Shown here: piece after piece, positions 6,804 through 50,992 of the stretch
Layout: every line of letters begins with the position of its first letter
Position numbering within the stretch: the stretch's first letter is position 1
Origin: a virus
Lineage: Duplodnaviria > Caudoviricetes
DNA: 64,000 nucleotides
IMG/VR virus record: IMGVR_UViG_3300025314_000006
Strand: one strand, 5' to 3'
Position numbers and translations under genes: made by a program
The notes under the pieces: model-generated
What the model saw: the letters and a program-made list of their open reading frames with translations, nothing else
Told to the model about the DNA's origin: nothing
Database searches by the model: none

Positions 6804-7241
6804 TTAATTACGATTTCTAATTTGAGCTTCCATAGTTAACGCCTTAATGCCGGATTTTATATTTGCGTTATTTTCATCTTCTATTTGTATATCTATTTTT
6901 GAAGTGTCAAAGATCATTCTTAACGAATATCCATCTTCTCCATTTCTGTTTTTTAAAACCATCATTGTGGCTTTCTTAATAACTTTATCCTCATCTGGTC
7001 TCGCAATTCCTAAAATAATATCAGCTGTTTGTGCTTTACCAAGGCTTTCAGAGATTGTATCGAGACCGAACTTGTCTTTATTCATTGAACTATTATGAGT
7101 GTAAATGTCATTTGCAAAAAACATATGTGCATCCTCCACTGTTATATCAACAGTTTCTTCTTCTCCAATTAATTCTATGGACATTATTTCATCTTCTAAA
7201 ATGTCTATTATTGACTCACTTACTATATTCTGTTTTTTCAT
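6804..7241 (-). CDS. dnaB: DnaB-like helicase C-terminal fragment: split-intein IntC (50 aa) plus C-extein
   Basis: Intein blocks F/G 'TVDITVEDAHMFFANDIYTHN|S'; the extein has 'ISESLGKAQTADIILGI...KNRNG', helicase motif H4. Confidence 0.9.
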   Translation of the reverse strand: MKKQNIVSESIIDILEDEIMSIELIGEEETVDITVEDAHMFFANDIYTHNSSMNKDKFGLDTISESLGKAQTADIILGIARPDEDKVIKKATMMVLKNRNGEDGYSLRMIFDTSKIDIQIEDENNANIKSGIKALTMEAQIRNRN

Positions 7242-8472
7242 TTTTTATAAAATTTATACATTTTTCTATTATTTGTTTTTTGTCGTTTTTATAATCTAAC
7301 TCTGGTATTCTTAACACTTCATATCCTTTACTAATTAAAAAACAATCTCTCAAAATATCTCTTTCTTTTTGTTTCGTGGATGAATGCCAAAAATCACCAT
7401 CAAATTCTATTATTTTATTTTCAAATTTAAAATCCACACTTATAACATATATATCATTTTGATATGTATAAAAAACATGTTCCTCATTAAGTTCTGCAAA
7501 ATAACATTTACTTTTTTCGAATTCATCAATTTGTTCATATATGCTCCAAAACAATTCTTGTGATATTTTACTATAATTTTTTAAAAATCTTCCATTAATA
7601 ATAAGCTGTGTAAATCGTTCTTGTCTTTTTATGGGACCAACAATTGGACCATACCTTTCTATATAACCCTCAACAGAATTTGAATAAGAAACTTTTTTAC
7701 AATATTCTTCGTATCTTTTTTTGCCATCAACCTCACCGTATCTTTTTTTAAATGCTTTTAAACTTGTTTTATCCATTGATTTGCAATATTTTTCATATTC
7801 ATCTTTACCTTTTTCTTCGCCATGCTTTTCAATATACGTTTCAAGAGAATTCCTTTTTGACATTCTAATTGAATTTTCATTCCAAATTCTTGTACCTTCT
7901 TCTTCTCCATATATCTCAATGCGCCTTTCTAATGTGGACCCATTTTTCCAATCTCCTTTTTCTTTTTTCTTTTGAATTCCGACTCTCCATTTCTCTAAAT
8001 AAGAATTCCATCTTTTTAAACCCTCTTCTTCTCCATATCTTTCGGTCATTATTTCTAATGATACACTTCTTTTACTTTTTCTAATTTCATCCCAAATTTT
8101 ATTACCCTCATCTTCTCCTAATTTAACAATAAGTTTTTCAAGAGTGACAACACATTTTTCATTTTTTTCATCAAATTGCTTTTGACCCTCAACCTCTCCA
8201 TATCTTAATATGAAAGATTCTAATGATGATGAATTTCTATTAAATTTTTCTTTTATTAATTTTATTCTCGTTATCCAATCACATTCTATATTATTTATTA
8301 TAAAGTCTACTATTAATTTAAAATTGTTATGTATAAAAATTTTATTAAATTCTTCTATAATATTTGTTAATTGTTCTTTTTGAAACTCATTAATTTTATT
8401 AACATCTAAACATTTTAAAGATTTAATATTTAATAATTCTTCTATTGTTTTAAACTTTTTTATTTTTTCCAT
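7216..8472 (-). CDS. Free-standing Vsr/DUF559-like (EDxHD-type) homing endonuclease between the split dnaB halves
   Basis: Repeated (K/R)YGEEEG..R/W motifs, C-terminal 'IIEFDGDFWH...RD..L..KGYEVLRI'; likely ATG at 8472, just after the CTATTTA motif. Confidence 0.8.
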   Translation of the reverse strand: MEKIKKFKTIEELLNIKSLKCLDVNKINEFQKEQLTNIIEEFNKIFIHNNFKLIVDFIINNIECDWITRIKLIKEKFNRNSSSLESFILRYGEVEGQKQFDEKNEKCVVTLEKLIVKLGEDEGNKIWDEIRKSKRSVSLEIMTERYGEEEGLKRWNSYLEKWRVGIQKKKEKGDWKNGSTLERRIEIYGEEEGTRIWNENSIRMSKRNSLETYIEKHGEEKGKDEYEKYCKSMDKTSLKAFKKRYGEVDGKKRYEEYCKKVSYSNSVEGYIERYGPIVGPIKRQERFTQLIINGRFLKNYSKISQELFWSIYEQIDEFEKSKCYFAELNEEHVFYTYQNDIYVISVDFKFENKIIEFDGDFWHSSTKQKERDILRDCFLISKGYEVLRIPELDYKNDKKQIIEKCINFIKNEKTEYSK

Positions 8473-8515
8473 ACATATAAATAGTATGAAAATAAAATTT
8501 TGAGAGCGACACAAA

Positions 8516-9865
8516 CTACTTTTTAGAAAATAAAAAATCTCCTTTTGATAATCCGCTTTCTATAGATTTATATTCATTATTTTTTATTGGAAAAAAATGT
8601 TTTGAAGAACATAATATTTCCTTTCCGCTTTTTAGTTTAATTTTATACACACTTTGTTTTTCAATTGGGAAAATATTAATTACTTTTTTAAAACCAAGAT
8701 GTGTCAAAATTAAATCATTAACTTTTAAGTATTGTATTTCTTTTTTACCATCTGGAGTATCAATTAGAGAATTTAACCCTAAACATCTTCCACTCTGAGA
8801 AGCTGTCCAGATTGGAATATTCATTTCCATTGCCATTCCTCTCAGACCTTCATAAATTGAAGTCAGTGCAAATCTTTTTTCTGAAAAACTTGATGTAGCC
8901 TTCATTATGTCAGCATAATCAATAATAATTACATCTGGCACAATACCTTCTCTTTCTAAAACTTTAAGATGCGATTTAATAGTATTTAAAGACGCTGAAC
9001 CAGTTGGAAATTCCTTAATTATAAGATTTCCACCTTGTTTTGAAATTTCTAAAAGAGTTTCTCTTATTACATCAGGATATTCAATAACATCTTTTAAAGG
9101 TAAACCGGTTAAACACGAATCTATTCTATTGCCAATAGCACTTTCCTGTAACTCGAGTGTATAATATATTACTTGTTTTCCTGCCTTTAATGCAGTACAC
9201 GCAAATTTTACTAACATCATGGATTTTCCTCCACCAGTTGGAGAAAGTATAATTCCAAGCTCTCCACCAGCAAGACCTCCACCTATTTTTGAATCAAGAC
9301 CACTCATTGCCGGAATTGGAGTTCTATATTTTTTTATTAATCTCTTTTCCATATCCTTAAGATAATTGTGACCACTACTTTTTGGCTCACCAACCTTAAG
9401 CGCTTCGGAAATTATTTGAGCTATATTTTCATAATCTCCCTTTTCCCAATTATCAACAGCATCAATAAGTCCCTTTTTTAACGATTGTTTACGACAAAAA
9501 TTTAAAGCAATATCTTTTACATTAAGCTTATCAGTAATTCTCTGTTCTTCAATAAGCCGGATTAATTCAATGAGATTGTCTTTTAATTGTCCTTCGAGTT
9601 CTTTTTCGTTTACTATATCTCTAAGAGTTTGATATTCTGGTATAATATTGTATTTTGTAACAAAATCAAGAATATGCCTAATTAATGTTTTGATATATAT
9701 ACCATCAAAATATTCCGGCTTTAAAATATCTATAATTTGTGTTGAGAATTCGCCTTGTTTATCTTCTATTATAACTTTGATTAACTTTTTTTGAAAATTT
9801 AAATCCAGTAAGGTAAGGGGCTGATTAACATTTTTTATTGCACTATTAATTTCAGTATTTTCCAT
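8516..9865 (-). CDS. dnaB: DnaB/gp41-like replicative helicase N-terminal fragment ending in split-intein IntN (89 aa, 8519-8785)
   Basis: Walker A 'SPTGGGKS', 'IIIDYAD', 'IWTASQ', then intein block A 'CLGLNSLIDTPDG' and block B 'CSSKHFF', then stop. Confidence 0.92.
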   Translation of the reverse strand: MENTEINSAIKNVNQPLTLLDLNFQKKLIKVIIEDKQGEFSTQIIDILKPEYFDGIYIKTLIRHILDFVTKYNIIPEYQTLRDIVNEKELEGQLKDNLIELIRLIEEQRITDKLNVKDIALNFCRKQSLKKGLIDAVDNWEKGDYENIAQIISEALKVGEPKSSGHNYLKDMEKRLIKKYRTPIPAMSGLDSKIGGGLAGGELGIILSPTGGGKSMMLVKFACTALKAGKQVIYYTLELQESAIGNRIDSCLTGLPLKDVIEYPDVIRETLLEISKQGGNLIIKEFPTGSASLNTIKSHLKVLEREGIVPDVIIIDYADIMKATSSFSEKRFALTSIYEGLRGMAMEMNIPIWTASQSGRCLGLNSLIDTPDGKKEIQYLKVNDLILTHLGFKKVINIFPIEKQSVYKIKLKSGKEILCSSKHFFPIKNNEYKSIESGLSKGDFLFSKK

Positions 9866-14768: not shown

Positions 14769-14796
14769 ACAACAAATGATAGGATTTTTCGTTTAA
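14769..14796 (+). promoter_or_regulatory. ECF-type promoter (AAC-N16-CGT)
   Basis: ACAACA-N15-CGTTTAA, 6 bp before the ATG at 14803. Confidence 0.7.
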
Positions 14797-14802
14797 ACAG
14801 TT

Positions 14803-15249
14803 ATGAAACAATCAACAATCAAAGAAAACCAAGAAAAAATAAAGGATACACCATGGACAAAACTTGGGATAAAGGTAGATTTATGTTCGTTTTTGACGAG
14901 GAAAGTGTTGGTTGAAAAGTTTTCTCCTCAAAAAGCTAAAAAAATAGAAATGCGTAATTTCTTTATTTCGAAGATTGATGGGTGTGAATTATACGTGAAT
15001 GATATCTATCCTTATTACATATTTTACATTAAAAATATCAATGGAAATAATGAGATTTTAATGGAAAAACATGAAAAAAGCAAGACGTTTTGCATAAAAT
15101 ATGATGGCATATGGTCAGTTTTTGAGAGCTTGTACATGCTCCAATATGATGAGATTCAGTCATTTACACAGATTACCTTTGATGAGCTCCTAAAATTACA
15201 AGGGTATAAAACCTGTCTTTTGATTTTCCCTGTTAATTGTTTTCTTTGA
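14803..15249 (+). CDS. Array-associated protein, paralog A (148 aa); C-terminus encoded by repeat 1 and spacer 1
   Basis: Clear paralog of 38516 and 42001; reads in frame through repeat 1 (FDELLKLQGYKT) and stops at a TGA inside repeat 2. Confidence 0.85.
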   Translation: MKQSTIKENQEKIKDTPWTKLGIKVDLCSFLTRKVLVEKFSPQKAKKIEMRNFFISKIDGCELYVNDIYPYYIFYIKNINGNNEILMEKHEKSKTFCIKYDGIWSVFESLYMLQYDEIQSFTQITFDELLKLQGYKTCLLIFPVNCFL

Positions 15250-15414
15250 TGAGCTCCTAAAATTACAAGGGTATAAAACAAAGGTGTTGCAAGATCAAAT
15301 CGTAAAATACTTTGATGAGCTCCTAAAATTACAAGGGTATAAAACGAGACCAGTTATCCGGGCAGGAAGCATAAATGACTTTGATGAGCTCCTAAAATTA
15401 CAAGGGTATAAAAC
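15177..15414 (+). CRISPR. CRISPR-like mini-array A: 4 repeats, 3 spacers
   Basis: Identical 36-nt repeat CTTTGATGAGCTCCTAAAATTACAAGGGTATAAAAC at 15177, 15244, 15310, 15379; unique spacers of 31, 30 and 33 nt. Confidence 0.75.
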
Positions 15415-15420
15415 TTAATT

Positions 15421-17097
15421 TCAAAAATTTGTAAAATCAACCTCTCCTTCTGCTATTCCGCATTCATATAAATTACTACCTTCTGAGGAACCTACTTGGA
15501 GGGAAATATTTGTAAAATCCGACAGAACACTCTTAATTTCTTCAATTATACTAAATTCTTCTGGATGAACATCAATTATGAAAGAGTCGTGTACCTGAAA
15601 TATAAATTTTGATTTTTTGTCTGCAAAAAACTTTCTTATAAGATAAAGTTTTTCTACCAAAATATCAGCAGCCATGGCTGATATAAAATTACTAAATGTA
15701 GCCCATGTTTTTTGTGGCTTAACAATGGTACTAAAACTATTTACTATATATCCTAATTCGTCATAAGAACATTGTATTTGTTTTGAAAATTCTATAATTG
15801 GGTTTAAAAATTCTCTCACTCTTAAAATTGCATCATTAACATCCGGAACTTCTTTTAATATTTTTTTTAACACTTCTTCTCCTCCACCATAAATTAATGT
15901 ATGATTAATAGATTTGCCAATAGAGCGTTCTTTTGCATTCACTTTTTTATTCTTAAAAATAACTTTTGCAGTTTCTTCATGCAAATCTTTATCTTTAAAT
16001 TTTTTTATAAAATCCTTATCCTGAGAAAAGAATAAAGCTAATTTTGTTTCAAAAGAAACATAATCCAATACAACTATTTTTCCGCCCTTAAATCTTGAAA
16101 CAATCATTTTTCTATCATTACTATCCTTTGCTAACATTTGAGGGTTAAACCTTCTATCAACACAGTTTATACGTCCAGTTATTGTTCTTTTATTGGAATA
16201 CAGCAATCTTACATATTGCATTCCATCAGAAGTCTTTTTAAAGTCTATTTTTTCATTTTCATATTTTTTATCGAAAAACAACTCTCTTTTAGAGAGCCAG
16301 TCAGTTATGATGTCTTTTTTATTTAATCTAATGATGTATGATTTTTCATGGTCAGTTATTTCCTGTCTTTTATATAATTCATGCATAACAAATGGAATAA
16401 ACCGGTCAGATTCAGTATCCATAATAAAATCATAGAAGTATTTCTCGGATATTTCTTCAAAATATCTTGACCAAAAAAGATTTTCTATAGTTTCAAAAAA
16501 CGGTTCATGCTTTTCTGTTAGATATGGGCTTACATTAGAATAACTTAAACAAATTGGAGAGTATTTTTCAATAATAGAAGTAACTGATTTTCTTATATCC
16601 ATTCCAAAATATCTCATGCTTTCAAGATTTATTCCTATTATTTTTTTGCAATCTTCTGAATTATACAAGTACATGGCCTTACCAGAAAAATATGCATAAA
16701 ATTTATATGGTTTAATAAAGTTTTTTTCCAAAAACTTGGATAATTTTCCATCCAAAATACAGTCATATGTAATGTATGTATCTGGCAACCAGTTTGATAT
16801 TATGTTCTTTATAAAGGTTTTTGTGTTTAATATAGTGTTCGACTTTTCTTCGGAAGTGCTGTAAGCCCAAGAAATGTTATTTGAAATTTTGTGCTGAGAA
16901 ACTCTCTGAGCCGGAAATAACTTTTTTACATATTCCCATCCAACTATTATAGTTGGTACATTTTCTTCTTCAATTTTTTTTTCAATGTCACAAAGAATAA
17001 TATCGACTCCAGAAGTAGAAAACTCCAAGCTAAATGCCAATAAATCCTCTTCTAAAAAAGTAAGTATTTTGCATATTTTTATTTCTTTGTTTAACAT
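15421..17097 (-). CDS. polA: Family A DNA polymerase (polymerase domain, divergent N-terminus)
   Basis: 'TITGR', motif A 'VLDYVSFE', 'DLHEETA', motif B 'RSIGKSINHTLIYGG', motif C 'QVHDS'. Confidence 0.85.
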   Translation of the reverse strand: MLNKEIKICKILTFLEEDLLAFSLEFSTSGVDIILCDIEKKIEEENVPTIIVGWEYVKKLFPAQRVSQHKISNNISWAYSTSEEKSNTILNTKTFIKNIISNWLPDTYITYDCILDGKLSKFLEKNFIKPYKFYAYFSGKAMYLYNSEDCKKIIGINLESMRYFGMDIRKSVTSIIEKYSPICLSYSNVSPYLTEKHEPFFETIENLFWSRYFEEISEKYFYDFIMDTESDRFIPFVMHELYKRQEITDHEKSYIIRLNKKDIITDWLSKRELFFDKKYENEKIDFKKTSDGMQYVRLLYSNKRTITGRINCVDRRFNPQMLAKDSNDRKMIVSRFKGGKIVVLDYVSFETKLALFFSQDKDFIKKFKDKDLHEETAKVIFKNKKVNAKERSIGKSINHTLIYGGGEEVLKKILKEVPDVNDAILRVREFLNPIIEFSKQIQCSYDELGYIVNSFSTIVKPQKTWATFSNFISAMAADILVEKLYLIRKFFADKKSKFIFQVHDSFIIDVHPEEFSIIEEIKSVLSDFTNISLQVGSSEGSNLYECGIAEGEVDFTNF

Positions 17098-22096: not shown

Positions 22097-25000
22097 TTAT
22101 TTTATTCTTGCTTGATAGAATCCTCCAATATCGTCAGCGAGAGGAGCATTACTTCCACTTGTAGACTCACCCCAATTTCCGACTATGTTGAAACTCAGGG
22201 TCGCAACACACCACATAGGCTGAACTCGGCCACCAGAGCCATCTATAGACCAAGGTGAGTCATCATATGAAAACGAAATATTATTTATAATAACATCATA
22301 GTTGAACCAATCACCTAATTTTAAATGACTTACAGGTGGATATGTAAAAGAAAATCCTTTGCCAGAAGTATTTCTTGATGGTCTAGTAAGTTTGGATAAA
22401 AATTCCATTCTTGTTAAGAAATCTACTTTATCACCGGAAAAGAAAGCTGGCTGAAACATAAGATCTTTTTTCATTTCTTTTAATCTTTCTTTGGTTTCCT
22501 TAGTTTTTAAAGAAATGTCCCCAGAAGAATTAGTTTCTTCTCCACCTTTAATTAATTCTCTATAAATTTTTCCACCTTCATCTCCATATTTACGATTTCC
22601 CACATTTGAAGAATTATCTTTTTGTTTAGCTTCTAAATTTGAAATTTCGGAATTCAATTCACTTATTTGAGATTTTAAAGTAGAAGTGTTTCCAACATCA
22701 TCAGATGCTATAGCTAATAATTGAGCGTTATATTCAGATATTTGTTTCTTCTTATTTTTTATTTCTACTTCAATATTATCATTTGCTGTATTTATTCCAT
22801 TTTCCGATTCAAAATGTTTACTAAAAGTTTCTGAATATGTTGTTGAATCTTCCCAATTAACACCAACATCAACAGTTTGAGAATAATCAGTTAAAACAAA
22901 AAAGGATATGGAGCCTTCTCTATTTGAATTAGAATAAGTATAAATTGGCTCCGGTCTTCCAAGAAAATCTACCTTATTCCAATTTGCACTATCGCTATTT
23001 GAAAAAGACTTAACATATGGAGGAAAACTCATTGTATGATTAAGAGTAGAATCCCCATTTTGAATAGCGTAATTTTTTATTCTCAATTCAAGGGTCCCAG
23101 CATCTTTACTTGGTTTATAGGGATTGGCTATTGTATATCTGGCATAAGCTTTTTTAGCATTTGGGTCAGCACTAATTAAAAATTTTTTAGTTCTTTGATT
23201 ATAATTTTTAGATAAATCTATTCCTTCTGTTCCGGGAGCATTCTTTATTGTATTTATAATATGAGTAACGCCTCTTTCATGTTTATTAAAATCAACAGCA
23301 ATTGCATCTCCTGGAACTGTGTTTGACATCATAGAAATAGCCGTTCCTATTTCTCCATTTGTTGGTTTTAACAATTGTGTAACAGGAGATATTCCATCAG
23401 AATATTCCCCCGGAGATTGTAATCCTACATATGTTCCACCCTTAGCGCTAACTACTCCTGCTGGAGTTGAATTAGTAGATAATACTTTTTCGTTTTTAAG
23501 CGTACTGTTAGATAATGATAACAGCTCTTTAAACCCTCCAGCGTTATGTCCATTTAATATACTGTATCCATCTAATAAATCATCATATCTATTCCTGAAA
23601 ACATTTTTCTGTAAATTATAAAGTTGAGCAGCATTGGTTATTTTCGCTAAAGGAATTCCAGAATCTGGTTTTGTTTCAAGCCCATAAATTGGTTTTAAAT
23701 TTTTGGTTGCGTCAAGTATTGTTCCTTTAAATTTCATAAGCTCTCTTATTGGAGCGCTCATAATTTCTAAATTAGATACACCTACAAATGTGCTTGTTCC
23801 TCCCATCATTAAAGAAGTACCAAGACCATTAGAATTTCCATTTTTTGTTAATAAATTATGTCTAGTAGCATTTGCAATAGTTATTATAGTATTTGGTCTA
23901 TCAACATTTTTAGATAATAGAGAATTTCTTGTACCTACAGAATCAGATTCTAAGCTTAAATATTGAGGAACATTTGCTGATAATAAATCATTTCTTATAC
24001 TTAATGAATTCTGATCTAAATCAATATTATTTACGACATTACTCGCCAATAATGCATTTCTTGAAATTAGTGCATCTCCATCTAAATCAATAACTACAGG
24101 AACGTTTGCAGCAAGAAGAGCTCCTCTCGGAACCGCAGATAAAACATCTAAATCTGTATTTGACGGAACATTACTAGATAATAATGTGTCTCTTAGAATT
24201 ATTGAATTAGCGTCCAAATCAATATTGTTTGGTACATTGCTTGCCAATAATGAATCTCTTGGAATTACTGAATTTGCGTCTAAGTCAATATTATTTGGAA
24301 CATTACTTGCTAATAGCGTGTTTCTTGGAGCAGTTGAGTTCGCATCTAAATCGATATTCACTGGAACGTTGTTTGCCAATAATGTATTTCTCGGAACAGT
24401 TGAGTTTGCATCTAAATCTATATTCGCTGGAACGTTACTTGATAACAAATTTTCTCTTGCAGTTGTTGAGTTAGAATCTAAGTTAGTATTCGCTGGCACA
24501 TTACTTGCTAATAATGAATCTCTTGGAACAGTTGAGCTTGCATCTAAATCTATATTCGCTGGAACGTTACTTGATAACAAATTTTCTCTCGTAGTCGTTG
24601 AGTTCGAATCTAAATTAACATTCGCTGTCACATTTGCTGAAAGTAATCCATCTCTTGTAATTGTTGAGTTCGCGTCTAAATTAACTTTTGACGGCACATT
24701 TGATGATAGTAAACTTTCTCTTGTTACTGTCGACTTTGAATCTAAATTAATATTCGGTGCCACATTTGATGACAATAAACTATCTCTTGTAGCTGTTGAA
24801 TTTGCGTCTAAATTAGCACTTATAGGAACATTTGACGACAACAAACTATCCCTTGAGATTGTTGAGTTTGCGTCTAAATCAATTTTTGATTGTACATTTG
24901 ATAACAACAAGCTATCCCTTATGGCGGTTGAATTTGCATCTAAGTCAATTTTTTTAGATACATTACTCGATAATAAATTATCTCTTGTAGAAACTGCAGA

Positions 25001-25747
25001 TAAATCAAGATTTATGTTTTTCTCTATATTTTTAAATTCCTGAGCTTCTCTGAACTGGGATGAATCTTTGTCGATATCAATTTTACCTTCAATATTTTTA
25101 GATAAGGAAGCATTTCTTAATTTTAAAGACTCATTATCAATATTGATGTTGGACTTAATATTTGAGCCCAACATTTCTTCTCTTGTTGATATTGCTTTTG
25201 ATTCTAAGTCTAAATTAGCCGGCACATTGCTCGATAATAAATTCTCTCTTACGCTAACAGATTTATCATCAAGATTTATCTTTTTCTCTACGTTATGAGA
25301 AATATTTGAATTTCTTGCATCTTTTGATTGAATATCTAAATTTGTTTCATGAGGAATGTTTTTTGATAATAGATTTTCTCTCACTGAGTCAGATAACTCT
25401 TCTAATCCAACAGAAGATTTAAGTAAACTATTTTTTGAAATTTGTGATTGTCTATAATTTTCTCCAGATATGTCTAAATCGATTTGTTTTTCTACATGTT
25501 TAGAAATCATTGTATTTCTGATGTTTGTAGAATTTTCATCAAGATTCGCTGTAAAAGTTGACTCGTTTTTTGCGAGCATTGTTTTTCTCGTTTCTGTATA
25601 CAAAACATCATAAAGATTCTCCGGCCTCTTTACGTTTTTTGACAAAAGGGTTTTTCTAACTTCAGCAGAATATTGTCCAAAGAAGTGTTCTAACTTCTCA
25701 CGAGCTTGTTGTTCTTCAAATGTTTCGTCATAATATTCTGTTGACAT
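22097..25747 (-). CDS. Baseplate / tail-tube-initiator-like protein with a long 22-aa repeat region
   Basis: C-terminal 'FPPYVKSFSNSDSANWNKVDFLGRPEPIYTY...ISF' and 'PPVSHLKLGDWF...IINNISFSY', recalling gp48/gp54-like proteins. Confidence 0.65.
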   Translation of the reverse strand: MSTEYYDETFEEQQAREKLEHFFGQYSAEVRKTLLSKNVKRPENLYDVLYTETRKTMLAKNESTFTANLDENSTNIRNTMISKHVEKQIDLDISGENYRQSQISKNSLLKSSVGLEELSDSVRENLLSKNIPHETNLDIQSKDARNSNISHNVEKKINLDDKSVSVRENLLSSNVPANLDLESKAISTREEMLGSNIKSNINIDNESLKLRNASLSKNIEGKIDIDKDSSQFREAQEFKNIEKNINLDLSAVSTRDNLLSSNVSKKIDLDANSTAIRDSLLLSNVQSKIDLDANSTISRDSLLSSNVPISANLDANSTATRDSLLSSNVAPNINLDSKSTVTRESLLSSNVPSKVNLDANSTITRDGLLSANVTANVNLDSNSTTTRENLLSSNVPANIDLDASSTVPRDSLLASNVPANTNLDSNSTTARENLLSSNVPANIDLDANSTVPRNTLLANNVPVNIDLDANSTAPRNTLLASNVPNNIDLDANSVIPRDSLLASNVPNNIDLDANSIILRDTLLSSNVPSNTDLDVLSAVPRGALLAANVPVVIDLDGDALISRNALLASNVVNNIDLDQNSLSIRNDLLSANVPQYLSLESDSVGTRNSLLSKNVDRPNTIITIANATRHNLLTKNGNSNGLGTSLMMGGTSTFVGVSNLEIMSAPIRELMKFKGTILDATKNLKPIYGLETKPDSGIPLAKITNAAQLYNLQKNVFRNRYDDLLDGYSILNGHNAGGFKELLSLSNSTLKNEKVLSTNSTPAGVVSAKGGTYVGLQSPGEYSDGISPVTQLLKPTNGEIGTAISMMSNTVPGDAIAVDFNKHERGVTHIINTIKNAPGTEGIDLSKNYNQRTKKFLISADPNAKKAYARYTIANPYKPSKDAGTLELRIKNYAIQNGDSTLNHTMSFPPYVKSFSNSDSANWNKVDFLGRPEPIYTYSNSNREGSISFFVLTDYSQTVDVGVNWEDSTTYSETFSKHFESENGINTANDNIEVEIKNKKKQISEYNAQLLAIASDDVGNTSTLKSQISELNSEISNLEAKQKDNSSNVGNRKYGDEGGKIYRELIKGGEETNSSGDISLKTKETKERLKEMKKDLMFQPAFFSGDKVDFLTRMEFLSKLTRPSRNTSGKGFSFTYPPVSHLKLGDWFNYDVIINNISFSYDDSPWSIDGSGGRVQPMWCVATLSFNIVGNWGESTSGSNAPLADDIGGFYQARIK
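23840..25660 (-). repeat. About 27 tandem 22-aa (66-bp) coding repeats
   Basis: Consensus R(D/E/N)xLLSSNVPxNIDLDANSxxx; most regular in the centre; boundaries approximate. Confidence 0.9.
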
Positions 25748-26172: not shown

Positions 26173-27457
26173 ATTCACACTAAATGAAGTATTAGACACT
26201 TTAAAAGAAAAGAAACTCAATAGAGACGAGTATTCGTTATTGTATAGTAGCTATGAAACACAGATTGGCAAAGATGGTTATCTGCAATTCAAATTAACAG
26301 AAAAAGATAATTGGAAAAATGTTCATACGCTCGTTAATCAATATTTTAATTCGGAAGAGCACGATAAAAAACATATAGAGCTAATAGAAACTAAAATCGA
26401 AAAATGTTTAGTGACTCATCATGTTAATTTTTTTGAGAAAGAAAACAAGATAAATAATCATCCGGATAACTTATTGTGGTTAGGACTGGATGAACATAGG
26501 ATTTTACATGAGAAAATAATGTGTGAGGTAGTTGACAAAATGTGGAATCCCGAAAATACTGAATACTGTAATTTTGAAGTGCAGAGAGAAAAAATAAAAT
26601 TAGCAGCATCTGAAAATGGTAGAAAGCATTTTGAAATATTGTGGCACGGAGAAAATAATGAAGAGTTTAGAGCAAAAATATTACCTATTCTAATCGAAAA
26701 TGGTAAAAAAATAATGAATGAAAATTGGCATGGAGAAAATAGTGAAGTGTTTAGAGAAAAAATGAAATTAATCAAGAGTGAAAACAATTATGAATTATGG
26801 CACGGAGAAAATAGTGAAGTGTTTAGAACTAAAATATTACCTACTCAAATTGAGAATGGGAAAAAAATAATGAATGAAAGATGGCATGGAGAAAATAATG
26901 AAGAGTACAGAAAAAAAATGAAATTAATCCGTAGTGAAAATAATTATGAATTATGGCACGGAGAAAATAATAAAGAGTTTAGAACAAAAATGAAACCATT
27001 TCAAATCGAATCTGGCAAAAAAGTAATGAAGGAATTATGGCATGGAGAAAACAACGAAGAATTCAGAGAAAAAATGTTAACTGTTGCTATAAATAATATT
27101 TCTGAACATAATGATACTTTTTGGAATGGTGAAGATAATAAATTAAGAAGAAAAGAGCAGAGCGAAAGAATAAAGGGAATATCAGAAAATTTTTGGTACG
27201 GAGAAAATAATGAAGAAAATCGTAAAAATCATGCAGAGAGATTGTCGAAAAGAAATGCTGACCCAGAACATAAACGAAAAGTAATAGAAGGTAAGATATT
27301 TAAAATTTTCAAAAAAATATTAGAAGCAGGAGAAGAAATCTCAAATGAAACTTTCATTAAATACAAATTTAATGGAGCTCCATACCCAATAACTGTTTTT
27401 GGTTCTATAGAAATTGCTATAGAAAAACTAAAAGATTATCATGAAAAGGTTAAATAA
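26156..27457 (+). CDS. HNH homing endonuclease with WHGEN repeats
   Basis: 'VTHHVNF...NNHPDNLLWLGLDEHRILH' HNH motif; 8 W(H/N/Y)GE(N/D) motifs. Confidence 0.75.
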   Translation: MKVKTKFTLNEVLDTLKEKKLNRDEYSLLYSSYETQIGKDGYLQFKLTEKDNWKNVHTLVNQYFNSEEHDKKHIELIETKIEKCLVTHHVNFFEKENKINNHPDNLLWLGLDEHRILHEKIMCEVVDKMWNPENTEYCNFEVQREKIKLAASENGRKHFEILWHGENNEEFRAKILPILIENGKKIMNENWHGENSEVFREKMKLIKSENNYELWHGENSEVFRTKILPTQIENGKKIMNERWHGENNEEYRKKMKLIRSENNYELWHGENNKEFRTKMKPFQIESGKKVMKELWHGENNEEFREKMLTVAINNISEHNDTFWNGEDNKLRRKEQSERIKGISENFWYGENNEENRKNHAERLSKRNADPEHKRKVIEGKIFKIFKKILEAGEEISNETFIKYKFNGAPYPITVFGSIEIAIEKLKDYHEKVK

Positions 27458-38481: not shown

Positions 38482-38509
38482 GCAACAAGCATCACAAAAA
38501 TTCGTTTAA
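38482..38509 (+). promoter_or_regulatory. ECF-type promoter
   Basis: GCAACA-N15-CGTTTAA, 6 bp before the ATG at 38516. Confidence 0.7.
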
Positions 38510-38515
38510 ATAGTT

Positions 38516-38962
38516 ATGAACCATTCGAAACTAAAAGAAAAGCAAAAAGAAACTAAGAATACGCCATGGACAAAACTTGGGATAAAGGTAGATTTGTGTT
38601 CGTTTTTGACGAGGAAAGTGCTGGTTGAAAAGTTTTCTCCTCAAAAAGCTAAAGAATCAGAAATGAAAGAGTTTTTTATTTCGAAGATTGATGGGTGTGA
38701 ATTATTTATTCATAATAACTATGAAAATTACGTTTTTTATATAAAAGAAACCAATGGAAACAAAGAAATTTTAATGGAAAAAAATGAAAAAAACAAGACA
38801 TTTTATATAAAACATGATGGCATATGGTCAGTTTTTGAGAGCCGATACATGCTCCAATATGATGAGATTCAGTCACTTACGCAAGGATACCTTTTAGACA
38901 GTTTAAATTCTAAAGGGTATAAAACAATTGGGTATTTTTTTCATAATTGGGGACCCTTTTAG
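38516..38962 (+). CDS. Array-associated protein, paralog B (148 aa)
   Basis: Reads through repeat 1 (LLDSLNSKGYKT) and spacer 1; stops at a TAG in repeat 2. Confidence 0.85.
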   Translation: MNHSKLKEKQKETKNTPWTKLGIKVDLCSFLTRKVLVEKFSPQKAKESEMKEFFISKIDGCELFIHNNYENYVFYIKETNGNKEILMEKNEKNKTFYIKHDGIWSVFESRYMLQYDEIQSLTQGYLLDSLNSKGYKTIGYFFHNWGPF

Positions 38963-39122
38963 ACAGTTTAAATTCTAAAGGGTATAAAACGGATAAATGT
39001 GGATGGAATACATAAGGTTGACTTTTAGACAGTTTAAATTCTAAAGGGTATAAAACGGATAAATGTGGATGGAATACATAAGGTTGACTTTTAGACAGTT
39101 TAAATTCTAAAGGGTATAAAAC
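38891..39122 (+). CRISPR. CRISPR-like mini-array B: 4 repeats, 3 spacers (two identical)
   Basis: 35-nt repeat CTTTTAGACAGTTTAAATTCTAAAGGGTATAAAAC at 38891, 38956, 39022, 39088; spacers of 30, 31 and 31 nt. Confidence 0.7.
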
Positions 39123-39129
39123 TTAAAAA

Positions 39130-41965: not shown

Positions 41966-41994
41966 GAAACAATATGATAGGATTTTACGTTTAA
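41966..41994 (+). promoter_or_regulatory. ECF-type promoter (variant)
   Basis: GAAACA-N16-CGTTTAA, 6 bp before the ATG at 42001; spacer nearly identical to that at 14775. Confidence 0.6.
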
Positions 41995-42000
41995 ACAGTT

Positions 42001-42435
42001 ATGAGTCAATCAAAATTAAGAGAAAATCGAGAAAAAGTTAGTGATACACCATGGACAAACCTTGGTATAAAATTGGACTTATGTTCATTTTTGACGAGGA
42101 AAGTATTGGTTGAAAAGTTTTCTCCTCAAAAATCGAAAGAAATAGAAATGCGGAATTTCTTTATTTCTAAGATTGATGGATGTGAGATATATTTAAACTC
42201 GAAGCATCCGGATTCCGTTTTTTACGTCAAAAATAAAGAGATTTTAGTGGAAAAATATGAAAAAAACAAGGCGTTTTACATAAAATATACCGACTTTTGG
42301 TCAGTTTTTGAGAGCCGATACATGCTCCAACATAATGAGATTCAGTCATTTACACAGATTACCCTTGAAGAGGGTCTAAAATCTAACGGTTATAAAACTT
42401 TCCAACAATTCGAACATACCCCTTATCAACCTTGA
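42001..42435 (+). CDS. Array-associated protein, paralog C (144 aa)
   Basis: Reads through repeat 1 (LEEGLKSNGYKT) and spacer 1; stops at a TGA in repeat 2. Confidence 0.85.
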   Translation: MSQSKLRENREKVSDTPWTNLGIKLDLCSFLTRKVLVEKFSPQKSKEIEMRNFFISKIDGCEIYLNSKHPDSVFYVKNKEILVEKYEKNKAFYIKYTDFWSVFESRYMLQHNEIQSFTQITLEEGLKSNGYKTFQQFEHTPYQP

Positions 42436-42665
42436 AGAGGGTCTAAAATCTAACGGTTATAAAACTCAACCCTATATAGAATGCTTAATTGCAATCCTTG
42501 AAGAGGGTCTAAAATCTAACGGTTATAAAACGTTCAAATTCACGCATGCGGAAAATGAACTGCCTTGAAGAGGGTCTAAAATCTAACGGTTATAAAACCA
42601 GCATCAAGATATTCTTTCAGTGTGAACGTCCCTTGAAGAGGGTCTAAAATACAACGGTTATAAAC
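42363..42665 (+). CRISPR. CRISPR-like mini-array C: 5 repeats, 4 spacers
   Basis: 36-nt repeat CCTTGAAGAGGGTCTAAAATCTAACGGTTATAAAAC at 42363, 42430, 42496, 42563, plus a degenerate terminal copy at 42631; spacers of 31, 30, 31 and 32 nt. Confidence 0.78.
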
Positions 42666-43013
42666 TTAAAATAACTCATTTTTTGTTAAAGATAAAGTTT
42701 CAAATCTTTTTTCGCCGTAAACCCAATATTCTTTTATTCCATTTGGATAAATTATGGCTGGCTTAAAGTGACCTCTGTGAATTTTTCCATGAAAATAATA
42801 TCCTTCAATGCCAGATGAATGTATTGTGGCTGGTTGATCATTGTCTCTGTGTAACTTTCCGTCTTTATCAAAAAAATTATCCAAAGTTCCGTCTTTTTCA
42901 TAAAATATAACTCGTTTTTCTTTCCAAGTATCTTTATGGTACCAAATTTTAGTATGGCCATAATCTTCATAGGGTTGTCTAAAAAATTCAGTTATGACAA
43001 ATCGTTCCAACAT
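42666..43013 (-). CDS. Protein with 'LHR.D..PA' MORN-like repeats
   Basis: 'GKLHRDNDQPATIHSSG..YYFHGKIHR..KPAIIYPNG..EYW'. Confidence 0.65.
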   Translation of the reverse strand: MLERFVITEFFRQPYEDYGHTKIWYHKDTWKEKRVIFYEKDGTLDNFFDKDGKLHRDNDQPATIHSSGIEGYYFHGKIHRGHFKPAIIYPNGIKEYWVYGEKRFETLSLTKNELF

Positions 43014-46098: not shown

Positions 46099-48375
46099 TT
46101 AAAACACTTTTCTAAATTCAGCACTTCCATCAAAAGATAACCATCCTTTTTCTTTTTTAAATTTAGTCACATAAACACTATTATTCTTAAGCTTTGACTC
46201 AAGTTTTTTATACATATTATCCCACATAATAACTTTTTTAACTGTAGCCCCATCGGATAAGTGTAATACATACATTTTTCTTCCTGTTTTAGTTAATTTT
46301 TGTTCTACATTATTTAAACAGAAATAATAATAATTAATAGGATTATCAAAATTTGTTACCGGCTCTAACGCTACTCCATATTCTTCAACAAAAGCATCTC
46401 TGAGTTCATGCAGTTTTTTGAGTAAACCGAGATCAAGATTACAAACTTCTAAAAATTCTTTTTGCTTTATATCATCTGGAGTTTTATTAAATTTCTTATA
46501 AACAGTAACAGAATCCATTCCAAAATTTCCAAATATATCTAATTGCATAACGTTTTTTACTTTCGCAGTTCTCCATGCCATAATTTCCTCTCTGGATGGT
46601 GACCAATCATCAAATAGTCCAGCTTTTAAACACGCTTCAAAACTGCCTTTATTAAATTTTTTAAAAGGTACCGAGAAAAACTCATCCCTCGTTAACGTTC
46701 CTATATTTTTGGCTTTTAATTCTTTAAATGCAATATCTCCCATTCCATTTATTCCAGAAAATCCCATTGCAATTTTTTTATTTTCAATTGATGTCCATTC
46801 CCAATTAGATTTTCTTACAGGAGGGGCAATTTCAATCCCTTTAGACATAGCAGAAAGAAGTGCAGCTTGTAACCATTGTTTTTCTTTTTCTTTATCGCTA
46901 TTACTTTTAGGGTGATTTAAAAGTGCTGTATAGAATTCAGTCGGATAATAGTGTTTTAAAAAAAGGGTTTGCATAGCTATGTAGCTATATGAAGTTGCAT
47001 GTGATTTATTGAACGAATATCCCAAATATTTAATTAACCAGTCTTCTATTTTAGTTACTTCTTCTTCAGATAAACCCTTTGTTTTTGCTCCGTCTATGAA
47101 TTTTTTCCACAAATCAATATAATTTTTATAATTTTTATTTTTTAATTCATCTTCTGTTAATATGTCTCCACGTAATTTTTTTGCAATTATTTTACTAGCT
47201 GAGTCCATATATTTTCTTAAGTTATCACCATCTCCTTCATCCATTCCACCAATTTCCTTAGCAATAAACATTAGTTGTTCTTGATAAATTAGTACACCAT
47301 TAGTTTCTTCTAATAATGGAGCTAAAAGTTCATGTACATATGTTTTTTTTTCTGGATTGAATTTATTTTGTATAAATTCAATATGAGCTCCCATTCCAAG
47401 ACTTCCAGGTCTATATAATGAATTTGCTGCTGTTAATTCTTCAAATGTTTCAATCTGAATTCCTTTTATTAAAGCATTCATTCCCTCAGATTCAAATTGA
47501 AAAATCCCTTGATTATTACCCATTCTAAGTTCTATAAAAAGATTTGGGTCTTCAAGATTCACATAATCAACTTGCTCCTGTATGTCTATTCCTTTGTTTT
47601 CTTTTACAAGTTTTATTGCTGATTTTATAACATTAAGAGTAGTTAAATTTAATCTGTCTAATTTTAAAATACCAAGAGAAGATAAATCCTTTCCACTTCC
47701 AGATTCTTGATAACCTGAAACTATTTGACCTTTACAAATATTAACTGGCATATAATCCCAAACTGGTCCGGGCGTAATAACAATACCAGCAGCATGCTTT
47801 CCTAAATTCCTTATTTGTCCTTGAAGTTTTAGAGTAATACTTAATATTTCTGCATTATCTGGAGAAGTTAACCAGTTTTTAACTCTTTCTGAGCACTGTG
47901 GGTCATTTGGCCATGTTTCGAACCATTCTTGTAAAGAAATATCCCAAGTCGGTTTCGTTGGCATTTCTCTTGTTACAGCAAAAACATCTGACTCAAACCC
48001 AGATTCCCCTCCGAGAGCTTTAACCACATCTTTTATACATCCTTTTTCATTAAAAGTGCCAAAAGTAATTACCGGTATAACTCTTTCTTTTCCATATTTA
48101 TCATACAAAAATTGTAATGTTTTTGCATCTGAACCTGTTTCAAAATCGATATCGATATCAGGAATCGATTTCCTTTTTGTGTTTAAAAATCTTTCAAAAT
48201 ATAAACCAAAACGAAGAGGGTCTATTTTTGTTATATCAAGACAGTATGATAATAAACAACCAGATGCAGAATTATGAACTCCTAAACTTTCAACATTGTA
48301 AGAGTGAGAATTTTCTACTGTTAAATCGTGAACTCTACCTTTATATTTAATTATATTTTTTGATTTTAATTTCAT
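46099..48375 (-). CDS. dnaE: DNA polymerase III alpha C-terminal fragment: split-intein IntC (35 aa) plus C-extein
   Basis: 'VHDLTVENSHSYNVESLGVHN|SASG', then 'LYFERFLN', 'PDIDIDF', 'KHAAG', 'LKLDRL', 'YSFNKSHA'. Confidence 0.93.
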   Translation of the reverse strand: MKLKSKNIIKYKGRVHDLTVENSHSYNVESLGVHNSASGCLLSYCLDITKIDPLRFGLYFERFLNTKRKSIPDIDIDFETGSDAKTLQFLYDKYGKERVIPVITFGTFNEKGCIKDVVKALGGESGFESDVFAVTREMPTKPTWDISLQEWFETWPNDPQCSERVKNWLTSPDNAEILSITLKLQGQIRNLGKHAAGIVITPGPVWDYMPVNICKGQIVSGYQESGSGKDLSSLGILKLDRLNLTTLNVIKSAIKLVKENKGIDIQEQVDYVNLEDPNLFIELRMGNNQGIFQFESEGMNALIKGIQIETFEELTAANSLYRPGSLGMGAHIEFIQNKFNPEKKTYVHELLAPLLEETNGVLIYQEQLMFIAKEIGGMDEGDGDNLRKYMDSASKIIAKKLRGDILTEDELKNKNYKNYIDLWKKFIDGAKTKGLSEEEVTKIEDWLIKYLGYSFNKSHATSYSYIAMQTLFLKHYYPTEFYTALLNHPKSNSDKEKEKQWLQAALLSAMSKGIEIAPPVRKSNWEWTSIENKKIAMGFSGINGMGDIAFKELKAKNIGTLTRDEFFSVPFKKFNKGSFEACLKAGLFDDWSPSREEIMAWRTAKVKNVMQLDIFGNFGMDSVTVYKKFNKTPDDIKQKEFLEVCNLDLGLLKKLHELRDAFVEEYGVALEPVTNFDNPINYYYFCLNNVEQKLTKTGRKMYVLHLSDGATVKKVIMWDNMYKKLESKLKNNSVYVTKFKKEKGWLSFDGSAEFRKVF

Positions 48376-48379
48376 ATTA

Positions 48380-49414
48380 TTATAATGTTTTTACATATTC
48401 AAGTGTCATTTTGTGTAGGAAAATCATAAAATCAAAATTAAATCCTCTATCCAAACATTCTTGTTTCTTAAAATCGTTATTAATTTTACATTTATTATAT
48501 ATCCAAGTGGATTTTACTTCAATTATTTTATTTATTGAGATAATGTATATATCTGGAAAATATCTTCTTACAATGTTATCTATGTCTGTATAAAATATTT
48601 TTCCTATTTTATTTTGTATGTTTTTATTGCCAATTATCAAATCTTCTTCTTTAAATTCTTTTAATAAAATATCTAAAGCCTTATTTTCATACCCTTGCAG
48701 TTTTATAATTTTTCCACTTGGCATTATATATTCTTTAAATTTAAAGCTATTTTTTTGTGATTTTGAAAAAATTTTTTCATTTTGCATAACACTATAAACT
48801 CCATATTTTTCAAAAACAGCATCCAAAATATTTTGTCTATAATTTTCATCTTGCCATTTTTCCAACATTTTATTACTCTGATTTTCTTTATAACCATCTT
48901 TTTTCCAAACTTCTATCATTTTTTTGCTTTGATTTTCTTTGAATTCTGGTCTATTTTTACATATTTTTTGTGCAACAGAAGTATTTTTTAACCAATTAAG
49001 AGATGATGTTACTTTTTTATTTATGCATTTATTACAAATTGGTTCGAGTGAAAAATAATCTCTTTTTATAATATTTCTACATGCTAATTCACTTTTTTTA
49101 TTACAAGCTTCACAACAAAAAGTTATTTTCATTTTGGAACTTTTAAACGCTTCTATTTTCCATTCTCCTAAAGCAATAAAATCACTTAATTCTATTCTGT
49201 TATTTATAGACTTTATATCATAGGCATTTAATAAATTTTCTAAATCTCTATTTTTAAATGGAATTTTACTTTCTTTTAATAATTTTCTAAATAATTTTAA
49301 GTTAATATTAAATTCTTTGGAAAATTTTAATATTTCATTTTTTGTTAAAAATCCATTTTTATTAATAATGACATTTAATATTTCTTTTTGTTCTTTTGTT
49401 ATTTCTTTTTTCAT
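48380..49414 (-). CDS. Free-standing PD-(D/E)xK (TnsA-like) homing endonuclease between the split dnaE halves (likely start 49414)
   Basis: CxxC fingers, 'EKYGV..VMQ', 'LQGYE', 'RYFPDIYI...IIEVKSTW'; own CTATTTA motif at 49431. Confidence 0.78.
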   Translation of the reverse strand: MKKEITKEQKEILNVIINKNGFLTKNEILKFSKEFNINLKLFRKLLKESKIPFKNRDLENLLNAYDIKSINNRIELSDFIALGEWKIEAFKSSKMKITFCCEACNKKSELACRNIIKRDYFSLEPICNKCINKKVTSSLNWLKNTSVAQKICKNRPEFKENQSKKMIEVWKKDGYKENQSNKMLEKWQDENYRQNILDAVFEKYGVYSVMQNEKIFSKSQKNSFKFKEYIMPSGKIIKLQGYENKALDILLKEFKEEDLIIGNKNIQNKIGKIFYTDIDNIVRRYFPDIYIISINKIIEVKSTWIYNKCKINNDFKKQECLDRGFNFDFMIFLHKMTLEYVKTL

Positions 49415-49458
49415 GACTTTATATTTACTGTAAATAGTCAAAAAAAATCCTTATTGGA

Positions 49459-50943
49459 CTAAGTCGGTAAATAATCTACTTCCATAATTTCATCTTCATT
49501 AGTTAAATCATTTGCTTTAACCCAACTTCTATTACTTGTTAGAAACTCATGGTCTAATGTGCATCTTATTTTTATTTTGTTTTCAAATTCTAATTCAACA
49601 ATATCTTCTTCTATGTCATAAGACAAAACATCTATTACTGTTTGCTTATTTCCATAAGCATCTATCACTTCTTCTCCTATATCTATTATTTCTATAGAAG
49701 AATATAATCCATTAGACATTTTTACTCTACTTCCTGGCAAAAAACATCCTCTTCCAGGTCCTGTGGCTATATCATTTTCCTTACAAAACTTAATTAATTC
49801 CCAAACAACCATAAAATAATCAGACACTTTTTTATCGTCAATTACTTTTAGTTCGTAATCAAGCCTGTCCTTATATTTTTGAATAACTTCATCATCAATT
49901 TTTACTAAACCATTTTTTTTATAAATGTTTAATTTTTGTTTTAATTTTGCATGTGCAAGTTTTGTTATTATTTCCTTAGTTCCTGTTTCTTTAAAATACT
50001 CAATAACATCCGGTGTTGGCTCGTATTTTGGAAATTTCTCTACATCCGTTTCAAACTCAAAATTACATTTATCAGCAACTTTTAAAGTGTTATCTAAACA
50101 TTCTTCAATAAATTTATCCGGATAATTATATCCAAATTCTTTATTCATTTTATAAAAATCATCTCTATTAGAATAATACAGATGTCGTGCTTGAAGTTTA
50201 AATGCTGTAGGGTCATCTACAGACTTATGTTGATTAATGGAAATAATCACATCCTGTAAACGATTATTTTCAGGACTCGAATAGTGAACATCACCTGTAA
50301 GTATTGGTGTTAATGAATATTTTTTAATCATTCTTAAAATAAAATGATTATATTTTTTTTGTTGAGGGATTTCATTAAATTGTAATTCTGCCACAAAATT
50401 GTTTCCAAATTCTCGCATTAAAAGTTTTATTCTTTCTTCTGCTTCTTGTTCCTTGCCTTCTTCTATTAACCTTGCCATTTTACTGGCCATACAACTGCTC
50501 GTAATCAAAAGTCCGGACTTATTCTCAATAAGCCATTCTGTTGTTATTCTGCCCCTACGATAATACCCTTCTGTGAAAGAACGATAAGTTAATTTATTTA
50601 AATTAACAAACCCTTCTTTATTCATTATAATAATTGATTGATGAGTATCTTTCCCCTCATAGGATTTTTCTTCATGTTTATCCATTTCATCATTCAGATA
50701 AGCTTCCATTCCAATTATCGGCTTAATTCCAGCAGCTTTACATTTATTATAAAATTCAAATGTACCAGATGCATGACCGTGGTCAATTAAAGTTATAGCA
50801 GGATGATGGTAATCCTTCGCTAAACTTACGTAATCGTCTATCTTCGCGGAACCATCGAGTAAGCTATACGAACTATGTAAATGCAAGTGTACCATAGGTT
50901 TTCTATGTAAACATCCATCATTTTTACAACTACATCTTTCCAT
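49459..50943 (-). CDS. dnaE: DNA polymerase III alpha N-terminal fragment (PHP domain) ending in split-intein IntN (95 aa, 49462-49746)
   Basis: 'HLHLHSSYSLLDG', 'GIKPIIGME', 'TGDVHY', 'GPGRG|CFLPGS...CTLDHEFLT'; likely start 50943 after a TATATTTG element. Confidence 0.92.
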   Translation of the reverse strand: MERCSCKNDGCLHRKPMVHLHLHSSYSLLDGSAKIDDYVSLAKDYHHPAITLIDHGHASGTFEFYNKCKAAGIKPIIGMEAYLNDEMDKHEEKSYEGKDTHQSIIIMNKEGFVNLNKLTYRSFTEGYYRRGRITTEWLIENKSGLLITSSCMASKMARLIEEGKEQEAEERIKLLMREFGNNFVAELQFNEIPQQKKYNHFILRMIKKYSLTPILTGDVHYSSPENNRLQDVIISINQHKSVDDPTAFKLQARHLYYSNRDDFYKMNKEFGYNYPDKFIEECLDNTLKVADKCNFEFETDVEKFPKYEPTPDVIEYFKETGTKEIITKLAHAKLKQKLNIYKKNGLVKIDDEVIQKYKDRLDYELKVIDDKKVSDYFMVVWELIKFCKENDIATGPGRGCFLPGSRVKMSNGLYSSIEIIDIGEEVIDAYGNKQTVIDVLSYDIEEDIVELEFENKIKIRCTLDHEFLTSNRSWVKANDLTNEDEIMEVDYLPT

Positions 50944-50992
50944 TATATTTTGTTTTTTACAAATATAATAAAACAATTCATATTTATAGCAA

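Follow-up and report, generated by a model that had tools for sequence, protein, structure and literature searches.

CRISPR systems are known from huge phages, type II systems included, and in the parts of the survey by Al-Shayeb et al. (2020, PMC7162821) considered here their effector is often missing, their arrays have a median of six repeats and almost all of them are reported without Cas1 and Cas2. Among Bacteroidota, arrays with different repeats can be served in trans by a single Cas1-Cas2 pair, as laid out for type II-C and VI-B loci in the portion of Hoikkala et al. (2021, PMC8092290) drawn on here. Viral mini-arrays form another described group and, according to the relevant section of a review (PMC11656645), these hold one or two spacers, have repeats identical to those of the host and lack cas genes. 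Finally, Cas1-Cas2 can integrate off target at genomic sites that resemble a repeat ('neo-CRISPR'), which is presented as a rare and sporadic event in over-expressing E. coli (Nivala et al. 2018, as cited in part of PMC7054753).

The DNA analysed here is a stretch of 64,000 nucleotides (hereafter the window) and forms part of CACVIJ010000001.1, a 503,412-bp huge-phage assembly from groundwater. Its gene content includes a T4-type major capsid protein, baseplate proteins, a family A DNA polymerase (PolA), a RecA-like protein, ribonucleotide reductase and a split PolIII alpha. No relative of the window was found among deposited phages (INPHARED), where the gene-plus-array unit described below was also unmatched at both the DNA and the protein level. 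At least six such units occur in CACVIJ010000001.1. Units A, B and C lie inside the window, unit D corresponds to L001, unit E to L011, L014, L018 and L078, and unit F to L086. Arrays A–E are dispersed in the genome and have no cas genes beside them, whilst array F adjoins cas2-cas1. We consider it probable that these are genuine CRISPR arrays, still acquiring spacers, in a huge phage that has its own type II-family Cas1 and Cas2, and that their leader is a phage-specific gene.

Arrays A, B and C each begin within the final 12 codons of a paralogous gene with a core of 133–137 aa (Table 1). In array A, repeat 1 corresponds to codons 126–137 of ORF A, and in all three ORFs repeat 1 is read in frame and encodes ...GYKT. 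Translation then proceeds beyond GYKT into spacer 1, and the stop codon is provided by the start of repeat 2, which is out of frame. For ORF A, this gives the tail CLLIFPVNCFL, encoded by spacer A1 and ended by a TGA inside repeat 2. The repeat core, AAGGGTATAAAAC, occurred eight times in the window versus 0.33 times expected from shuffles. With repeats of 35–36 nt and spacers of 29–33 nt, arrays A–F fit the generic definition of a CRISPR array, in which near-identical direct repeats of 23–55 nt alternate with unique spacers of comparable length; one spacer is duplicated (B2 = B3). The duplicated spacers of array B (38991-39021 and 39057-39087) are identical 31-mers, i.e. a tandem duplication of one repeat-spacer unit. 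Degenerate terminal repeats were present in C and D as well as in a distant relative (L180); in the fifth repeat of array C, TCTAAC is changed to TACAAC and one A is missing. Directly 5' of the ATG, the motif TTCGTTTAAA(C/T)AGTT was common to 5/6 units, and no Shine-Dalgarno sequence was present before the ATG at these motif sites. As judged from its sequence and position, this motif is a candidate promoter of a transcript comprising gene and array, and may yield a near-leaderless mRNA.

Table 1 Coordinates of the gene-plus-array units in the window and of the features next to them.
Feature	Coordinates	Strand	Details
ORF A	14803..15249	+	148 aa at present; 137-aa core ends GYKT at 15213
CRISPR array A	15177..15414	+	4 identical 36-nt repeats: 15177-15212, 15244-15279, 15310-15345, 15379-15414
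Array A spacers	15213-15243, 15280-15309, 15346-15378		A1 (31 nt), A2 (30 nt), A3 (33 nt)
TTAA after last array A repeat	15415..15418	+	source of the TAA at the gene end in the zero-spacer allele
PolA gene	15421..17097	-	family A DNA polymerase; convergent with ORF A; abuts the ORF stop in the zero-spacer allele
ORF B	38516..38962	+	paralog; 148 aa; core 137 aa; tail IGYFFHNWGPF encoded by spacer B1
CRISPR array B	38891..39126	+	4 repeats of 35/36 nt, 3 spacers, then TTAA (from 39123)
Array B repeats	38891-38925, 38956-38990, 39022-39056, 39088-39122
ORF C	42001..42435	+	paralog; 144 aa; core 133 aa; tail FQQFEHTPYQP encoded by spacer C1
CRISPR array C	42363..42669	+	4 identical repeats and a degenerate terminal repeat, 4 spacers, then TTAA (from 42666)
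Array C repeats	42363-42398, 42430-42465, 42496-42531, 42563-42598, 42631-42665		fifth repeat (42631-42665) degenerate
TTCGTTTAAA(C/T)AGTT motif	14786..14805, 38499-38518, 41984-42003	+ (at 14786..14805)	directly 5' of ATG

Other features of the window were also observed. PolIII alpha is encoded in two ORFs (46099-50976, minus strand) that flank a 353-aa ORF; the first of the two ends in matches to intein and Hint domains. At the end of a DnaB-like helicase (8516-9865, minus strand) there is an intein-splicing match, and an endonuclease-like ORF (7216-8514) comes next. Thirteen tandem 66-nt (22-codon) repeats were located at 23927-24982, within a 1216-aa ORF that had no domain match (22097-25747, minus strand), and repeats of 72, 84 and 156 nt in a neighbouring 433-aa ORF (26534-27216). 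Despite the common 66-nt period, the tandem repeats at 23927-24982 and 26534-27216 are protein repeats unrelated to the CRISPR units.

An earlier note on this DNA, made from the sequence alone, had mapped the three arrays in the window and reported TTAA after the last repeat of each; all coordinates were verified, including those of the TTAA (15415, 39123 and 42666). Its broader proposal, that the array ends preserve an ancestral stop codon, held for part of the units only. Putting the last repeat in place of the first gives AAA ACT TAA (Lys-Thr-stop) in A and B, and F likewise retains a stop (ACT TAG; P0042 ends GYKT), but C, D and E do not follow this pattern. The terminal repeat of array C is indeed degenerate, one A short and still followed by TTAA at 42666, and a collapsed C is frameshifted by the missing A and continues for 32 codons (P0006, L010). 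In D the stop falls inside the degenerate repeat, in E reading continues for 20 codons into the trailer, and in the distant relative L180 the terminal repeat retains its first 23 bases only before its own stop is reached. More generally, the old gene end consists of the last repeat and the sequence after it, as follows simply from insertion with duplication of the repeat. The three TTAA are the homologous trailer of paralogous units and not three independent events. The claim that removal of all spacers leaves a gene ending GYKT-stop was borne out by a 114.8-kb metagenome contig (L081) carrying exactly this allele of A. There, ORF A ends GYKT-TAA two bases from the PolA stop, and the flanking 3,410 and 3,040 bases show 100% identity to the window.

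Within the 503-kb genome, array F and the cas2 and cas1 genes are convergent. The Cas1 protein scored 289 bits against the type II Cas1 model TIGR03639 (cut-off 120) and Cas2 matches TIGR01573. The nearest named relatives of Cas1 (~50% identity) are type II Cas1 proteins of Bacteroidetes/Bacteroidia, and closer proteins (63–82% identity) without names occur on metagenome contigs. A search for Cas9 covered the DNA up to 10 kb from cas1, the window and three related fragments (215 kb in total) and found none; for the large ORFs of the window and of related fragments, PADLOC gave no Cas match. Local alignment and RNA duplex scans for a tracrRNA-like anti-repeat in the window and at the cas locus gave chance-level matches only. 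The only relative of an RNA-guided nuclease near cas1 was a TnpB next to an ISL3 transposase. This region (L171:7256-9763) encodes a 400-aa TnpB (NF040570, 149 bits), an overlapping 53-aa ORF before it and the ISL3 transposase. TnpB and ISL3 occupy the position upstream of cas1-cas2 where an effector is expected; either the effector was displaced by the insertion sequence or the TnpB-like protein has a role. In Rfam, no CRISPR-DR family was matched and the hits were limited to sub-threshold snoRNA-like noise. TIGR-Tas arrays, which this noise brought to mind, were rejected on three grounds: of the repeats, that of A alone contains a C-box-like UGAUGA, unit length is 36 + 30 nt, and the genome encodes Cas1-Cas2.

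The repeat of the phage arrays may resemble those of II-C or VI-B systems. A search for the repeat pattern TAAAWTYWMAMGGKTATAAAAC across 185,579 prokaryote species genomes gave 57 single chance matches and no array, and the host may be lacking from this set. The host-identical repeat expected of a virus-borne mini-array that uses host Cas proteins was not found in these 185,579 species genomes. Within the limits of these searches, the absence of an effector, an anti-repeat and a host array counts against the proposed reading of the loci. A distant homolog of the ORF (P0050, 172 aa) and a Cas1 75% identical to that of the phage (P0203) were each found on a 6,719-bp NCBI contig. This is probably one and the same contig, which would suggest that the link between the gene-array unit and cas1 is kept in another phage.

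We further investigated the gene in which the arrays begin. The dN/dS ratio was 0.18–0.44 in 15/15 pairs of paralogs (0.22–0.37 for ORF A versus its paralogs), and the ORF is therefore a real protein-coding gene. No family was assigned to it by Pfam, PHROGs, PADLOC or NCBIfam. In the search for related loci a single protein gave nothing and an alignment of eight sequences gave matches, and a profile search of 1.8 billion representative proteins identified 397 relatives. Many of these 397 have a motif of 12–13 aa that recurs after about 10 variable residues, and in all relatives fetched from viral contigs (17/17) the C-terminus corresponds to repeat 1 of a 36/30 array. Genomes carry several copies, for example seven within 72 kb of G004. 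A search of 401 sampled Bacteroidota genomes, with the G004 copies as a positive control, gave no member of the family, which is phage-specific. As this layout is kept across a large phage gene family, the arrays are old and not recent insertions into an ordinary gene. Among the relatives, one protein of 760 aa (P0056, on a JGI contig of 148.5 kb) has five tandem gene domains, each with one to three repeat-spacer units, in a single open frame; units arranged head to tail here make up one ORF.

A first AlphaFold2 model, built from a shallow alignment, was unusable (pLDDT 52), and a second from 116 sequences reached a pLDDT of 88.9. In the latter, residues 126–137, which the repeat encodes, make up a short strand and the terminal part of the last helix. 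The predicted fold matches nothing solved (Foldseek versus PDB, best E 0.49; VIA-align wide search, best Z 3.9), and libraries of predicted structures returned matches to uncharacterised entries only, among which the ESM Atlas clusters were 96–100% viral. Identity of the repeat at codon positions 1, 2 and 3 was 0.67, 0.73 and 0.50, respectively (16 units), demonstrating that the repeat evolves like a coding sequence; this counts against the proposed reading of the loci, being unexpected if the RNA or recognition by Cas proteins alone mattered. Synonymous codons were no more conserved in the repeat than upstream of it.

The fusion of gene and array could itself be the function, with the protein acting in cis on its own leader-repeat junction or transcript, or with the spacer-encoded tail being used so that adaptation diversifies the protein. 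This would agree with the retention of the fusion in 17/17 distant relatives examined and in many of the 397 family representatives, with a separate gene copy for every array (six per genome here, seven in 72 kb of G004), with the protein-like constraint on the repeat, and with a family that is phage-specific and has no known match to its fold. However, the tails are arbitrary in sequence and in length (0 to about 60 aa), and genomes that are otherwise identical carry either long-tailed alleles or zero-spacer alleles with a clean stop, so that the tail seems dispensable. We therefore regard a function of the fusion as unlikely. The same applies to the idea that the protein is a new CRISPR-associated factor, its C-terminal helix co-encoded with the repeat, which might for example recruit the integrase or protect or process the transcript, or whose tail is used.

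The reading of the loci as CRISPR arrays that are still growing is supported by their alleles in public metagenomes. Related loci were recovered through homologs of the ORF and the members of their 90% clusters, whose tails were matched to the translated spacers of the window; contigs were then fetched to confirm the arrays. These homologs and cluster members differ mainly in the tail after GYKT. At locus A, the window carries [A1 A2 A3], and P0018 has [A2 A3] followed by GYKT-stop. Locus C has [C1-C4] in the window, [C2' C3 ...] in P0039 and [C4] in L084. At locus E, the full allele [E1 E2 E3] was present in three IMG/VR contigs (L011, L014, L018) and in the reference genome, and [E2 E3] in contigs of 64 and 110 kb from two samples (L082, L083). 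For locus F, about seven contigs carry [F1 F2 F3], and [F2 F3] was found in a single sample, on two contigs (L085 and L173) that approach the array from either side. Zero-spacer alleles, which the earlier note had anticipated, were found in public metagenome contigs at A (L081), C (L010, with the degenerate terminal repeat alone), E (P0004 and P0030, whose tail is trailer sequence) and probably F (P0042). One further candidate, P0010, ends GYKT-stop and was not counted, as 132 nt (two units) precede PolA in it. Logan contigs were fragmented across the arrays and the alleles are not shown by them.

At four loci (A, C, E and F), the distal spacers were held in common between related contigs and differences were located solely at the ORF-proximal end. 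Such a combination of shared distal spacers and differences at the leader end is an accepted sign of leader-end acquisition in cellular CRISPR loci. The suggestion, made from the window alone, that spacers are added on the ORF-proximal side and rewrite the C-terminal tail of the protein is thus supported by nested alleles, by cas1-cas2 at F and by older terminal repeats. The repeats themselves provide a second line of evidence, independent of allele polarity. In D, the three newer repeats on the ORF side equal the present ORF end, whilst the terminal one belongs to the older C/E type, and the same arrangement was observed in P0048 (ORF-side repeats equal to the ORF end, older terminal repeat). 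This indicates that repeat 1 served as the template for the newer repeats once the gene end had taken its present form.

Many of the metagenome ORFs combine segments of two or three paralogs (P0003, P0021, P0024, P0027, P0028, P0032, P0037 and P0041), for example an ORF with the N-terminus of D, the middle of A and the repeat of B. Such mosaics reflect either units that often recombine or undergo gene conversion with one another, or chimeric assembly where sequence is shared.

Any single short allele could be ancestral or could be derived by deletion between repeats, and alleles found through the tail of the ORF protein reveal proximal differences alone, which is an ascertainment bias. It could accordingly be argued that these are true CRISPR arrays whose growth has ended, that short and zero-spacer alleles come from homologous recombination between identical repeats and that the polarity is an artefact of the tail-based search. 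Protein-based look-ups see solely what comes after the ORF, the identical 36-nt repeats and frequent paralog chimeras show recombination or assembly mixing, and the zero-spacer allele of C retains the degenerate terminal repeat, exactly the product expected of a crossover within the repeat's first 20 nt. Three observations speak against an end of growth and, in our view, make it quite improbable. Firstly, in a less biased set of arrays, found by repeat pattern or via Cas1 and completed with the complete arrays of short alleles, none of the complete arrays lacked an internal or distal spacer (0 among about 20, a small set that comprises tail-independent arrays of E in three contigs and F in about seven, as well as [E2 E3], [C4] and [F2 F3]). 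Secondly, Cas1 and Cas2 are intact. Thirdly, the three newer repeats of D copy the present ORF end and require acquisitions after that end had changed.

The content of the spacers also bears on the nature of the arrays. Mean spacer GC was about 0.38, reaching 0.53, versus 0.29 in the phage genome. About 200 kb of the phage's own genome (window and related records) contained no match to any of the 19 spacers, and the arrays of G001, G004, G005, G007 and G008 had no match in their own IMG/VR records. The exact A2 spacer occurs in run X1 on a contig of 240 nt and 1.8x depth (the phage is at ~9x), between unrelated flanks, with ...GGTTTTCTT before it and AAAAAGGTAAT... after it. This contig carries a protospacer of A2, which probably belongs to a different and less abundant element within that community. 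The only protospacer found was that of A2, although a similar loose end suggests one for B2. The 90-nt context of the A2 protospacer gave no meaningful phage match, and IMG/VR held no targets for the cores of A3, D2 and E1 or for the A2 protospacer junction. The length of the repeat-spacer unit was not a multiple of three in 8/19 cases; the frame is not maintained and translation of the spacers consequently looks incidental.

That the units are not CRISPR at all but a coding tandem repeat (12-aa motif plus 10-aa variable linker) expanding by slippage at the C-terminus of a phage protein might be read from the modal 66-nt unit (22 codons), the in-frame read-through of several units in P0002 (200 aa), P0069 and P0056, the codon-like conservation of the repeat and the place of residues 126–137 in a confidently modelled part of the fold, but it is highly improbable and already largely refuted by the frame breaks in those 8/19 units, with ORFs A, B, C, E and F ending in or just after the first spacer, and it is further opposed by spacers that are mutually unrelated and unlike the phage in GC, by the matching protospacer elsewhere for one of them, by cas1-cas2 adjoining array F, and by the degenerate terminal repeat and polarised alleles, which are hallmarks of CRISPR.

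For CRISPR arrays that continue to acquire spacers, we propose the following mechanism. The leader is a conserved, phage-specific protein-coding gene whose leader-repeat junction lies 12 codons before the natural gene end, so that repeat 1 is the 3' end of the gene itself. Insertion of a spacer by Cas1-Cas2 at this junction would duplicate repeat 1, and the old copy of the repeat, together with everything downstream including the original stop, would shift one unit away. The ribosome would then pass from GYKT into the newest spacer and stop within about 10 codons, or continue further where the repeat-spacer unit is a multiple of three. The last repeat would thus mark the original gene end, which would be why the array collapses to ...GYKT-stop. 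The insertion is presumably performed by the phage's own Cas1-Cas2 pair, and the changing protein tails would be a tolerated by-product and not the purpose. The crRNAs would be expected to act against competing elements via a host Cas9 or Cas13b, or via a phage protein elsewhere in the genome.

If correct, this provides population-level evidence of natural spacer acquisition by a phage-borne CRISPR system with its own Cas1-Cas2, in which the leader is a translated, conserved gene and the integration site lies within a reading frame. With the integration site placed there, the repeat must meet the constraints of the protein, the integrase and the crRNA together. The units therefore offer a natural system in which to ask what Cas1-Cas2 needs at the leader-repeat junction, show a route by which new arrays may arise at gene ends, and raise the question of a new array-associated protein family in huge phages. 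Were the tail to be used after all, CRISPR adaptation would be a generator of protein diversity.

Comparison with the described systems places these units closest to those of huge phages and of Bacteroidota. As in the data of Al-Shayeb et al. (2020, PMC7162821), from which the accession comes, the carrier is a groundwater huge phage, the arrays are compact (4–5 repeats here versus the median of six there) and a type II component is present in a phage; unlike most phage systems in the parts of that survey considered here, both Cas1 and Cas2 are present. Within the same parts of PMC7162821, no mention was found of a protein-coding leader or of a repeat 1 inside a gene. Nor did the literature searched, as far as the portions at hand extend, contain a description of a protein-coding leader whose last codons are repeat 1. 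The units share with the II-C/VI-B loci, as covered by the sections of PMC8092290 drawn on here, repeats of 36 bp, spacers of ~30 bp and a type II-family Cas1, whose nearest named relatives are in Bacteroidetes, as well as several arrays with different repeats, presumably served in trans by one adaptation module, polarised acquisition and a degenerate terminal repeat. They differ from those loci in that no Cas9 or Cas13b was found in the regions scanned here and in that the leader is a translated gene, whereas theirs is AT-rich non-coding DNA. Similar to the viral mini-arrays in the relevant section of PMC11656645, they are short arrays on a virus, presumably for competition between mobile elements, but they have 3–4 spacers per array, six arrays, their own Cas1-Cas2 and a coding first repeat, and no host array with this repeat was found among the 185,579 species genomes. 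Neo-CRISPR integration (Nivala et al. 2018, as cited in part of PMC7054753) offers the closest parallel for the insertion itself. There too, insertion beside a repeat-like sequence duplicates it, and what originally lay downstream ends up behind the last copy; the preserved stop codon follows the same logic. In contrast to neo-CRISPR, as that part of PMC7054753 describes it, the identity of gene end and repeat is conserved across a phage gene family, and what is an accident there is the normal state here.
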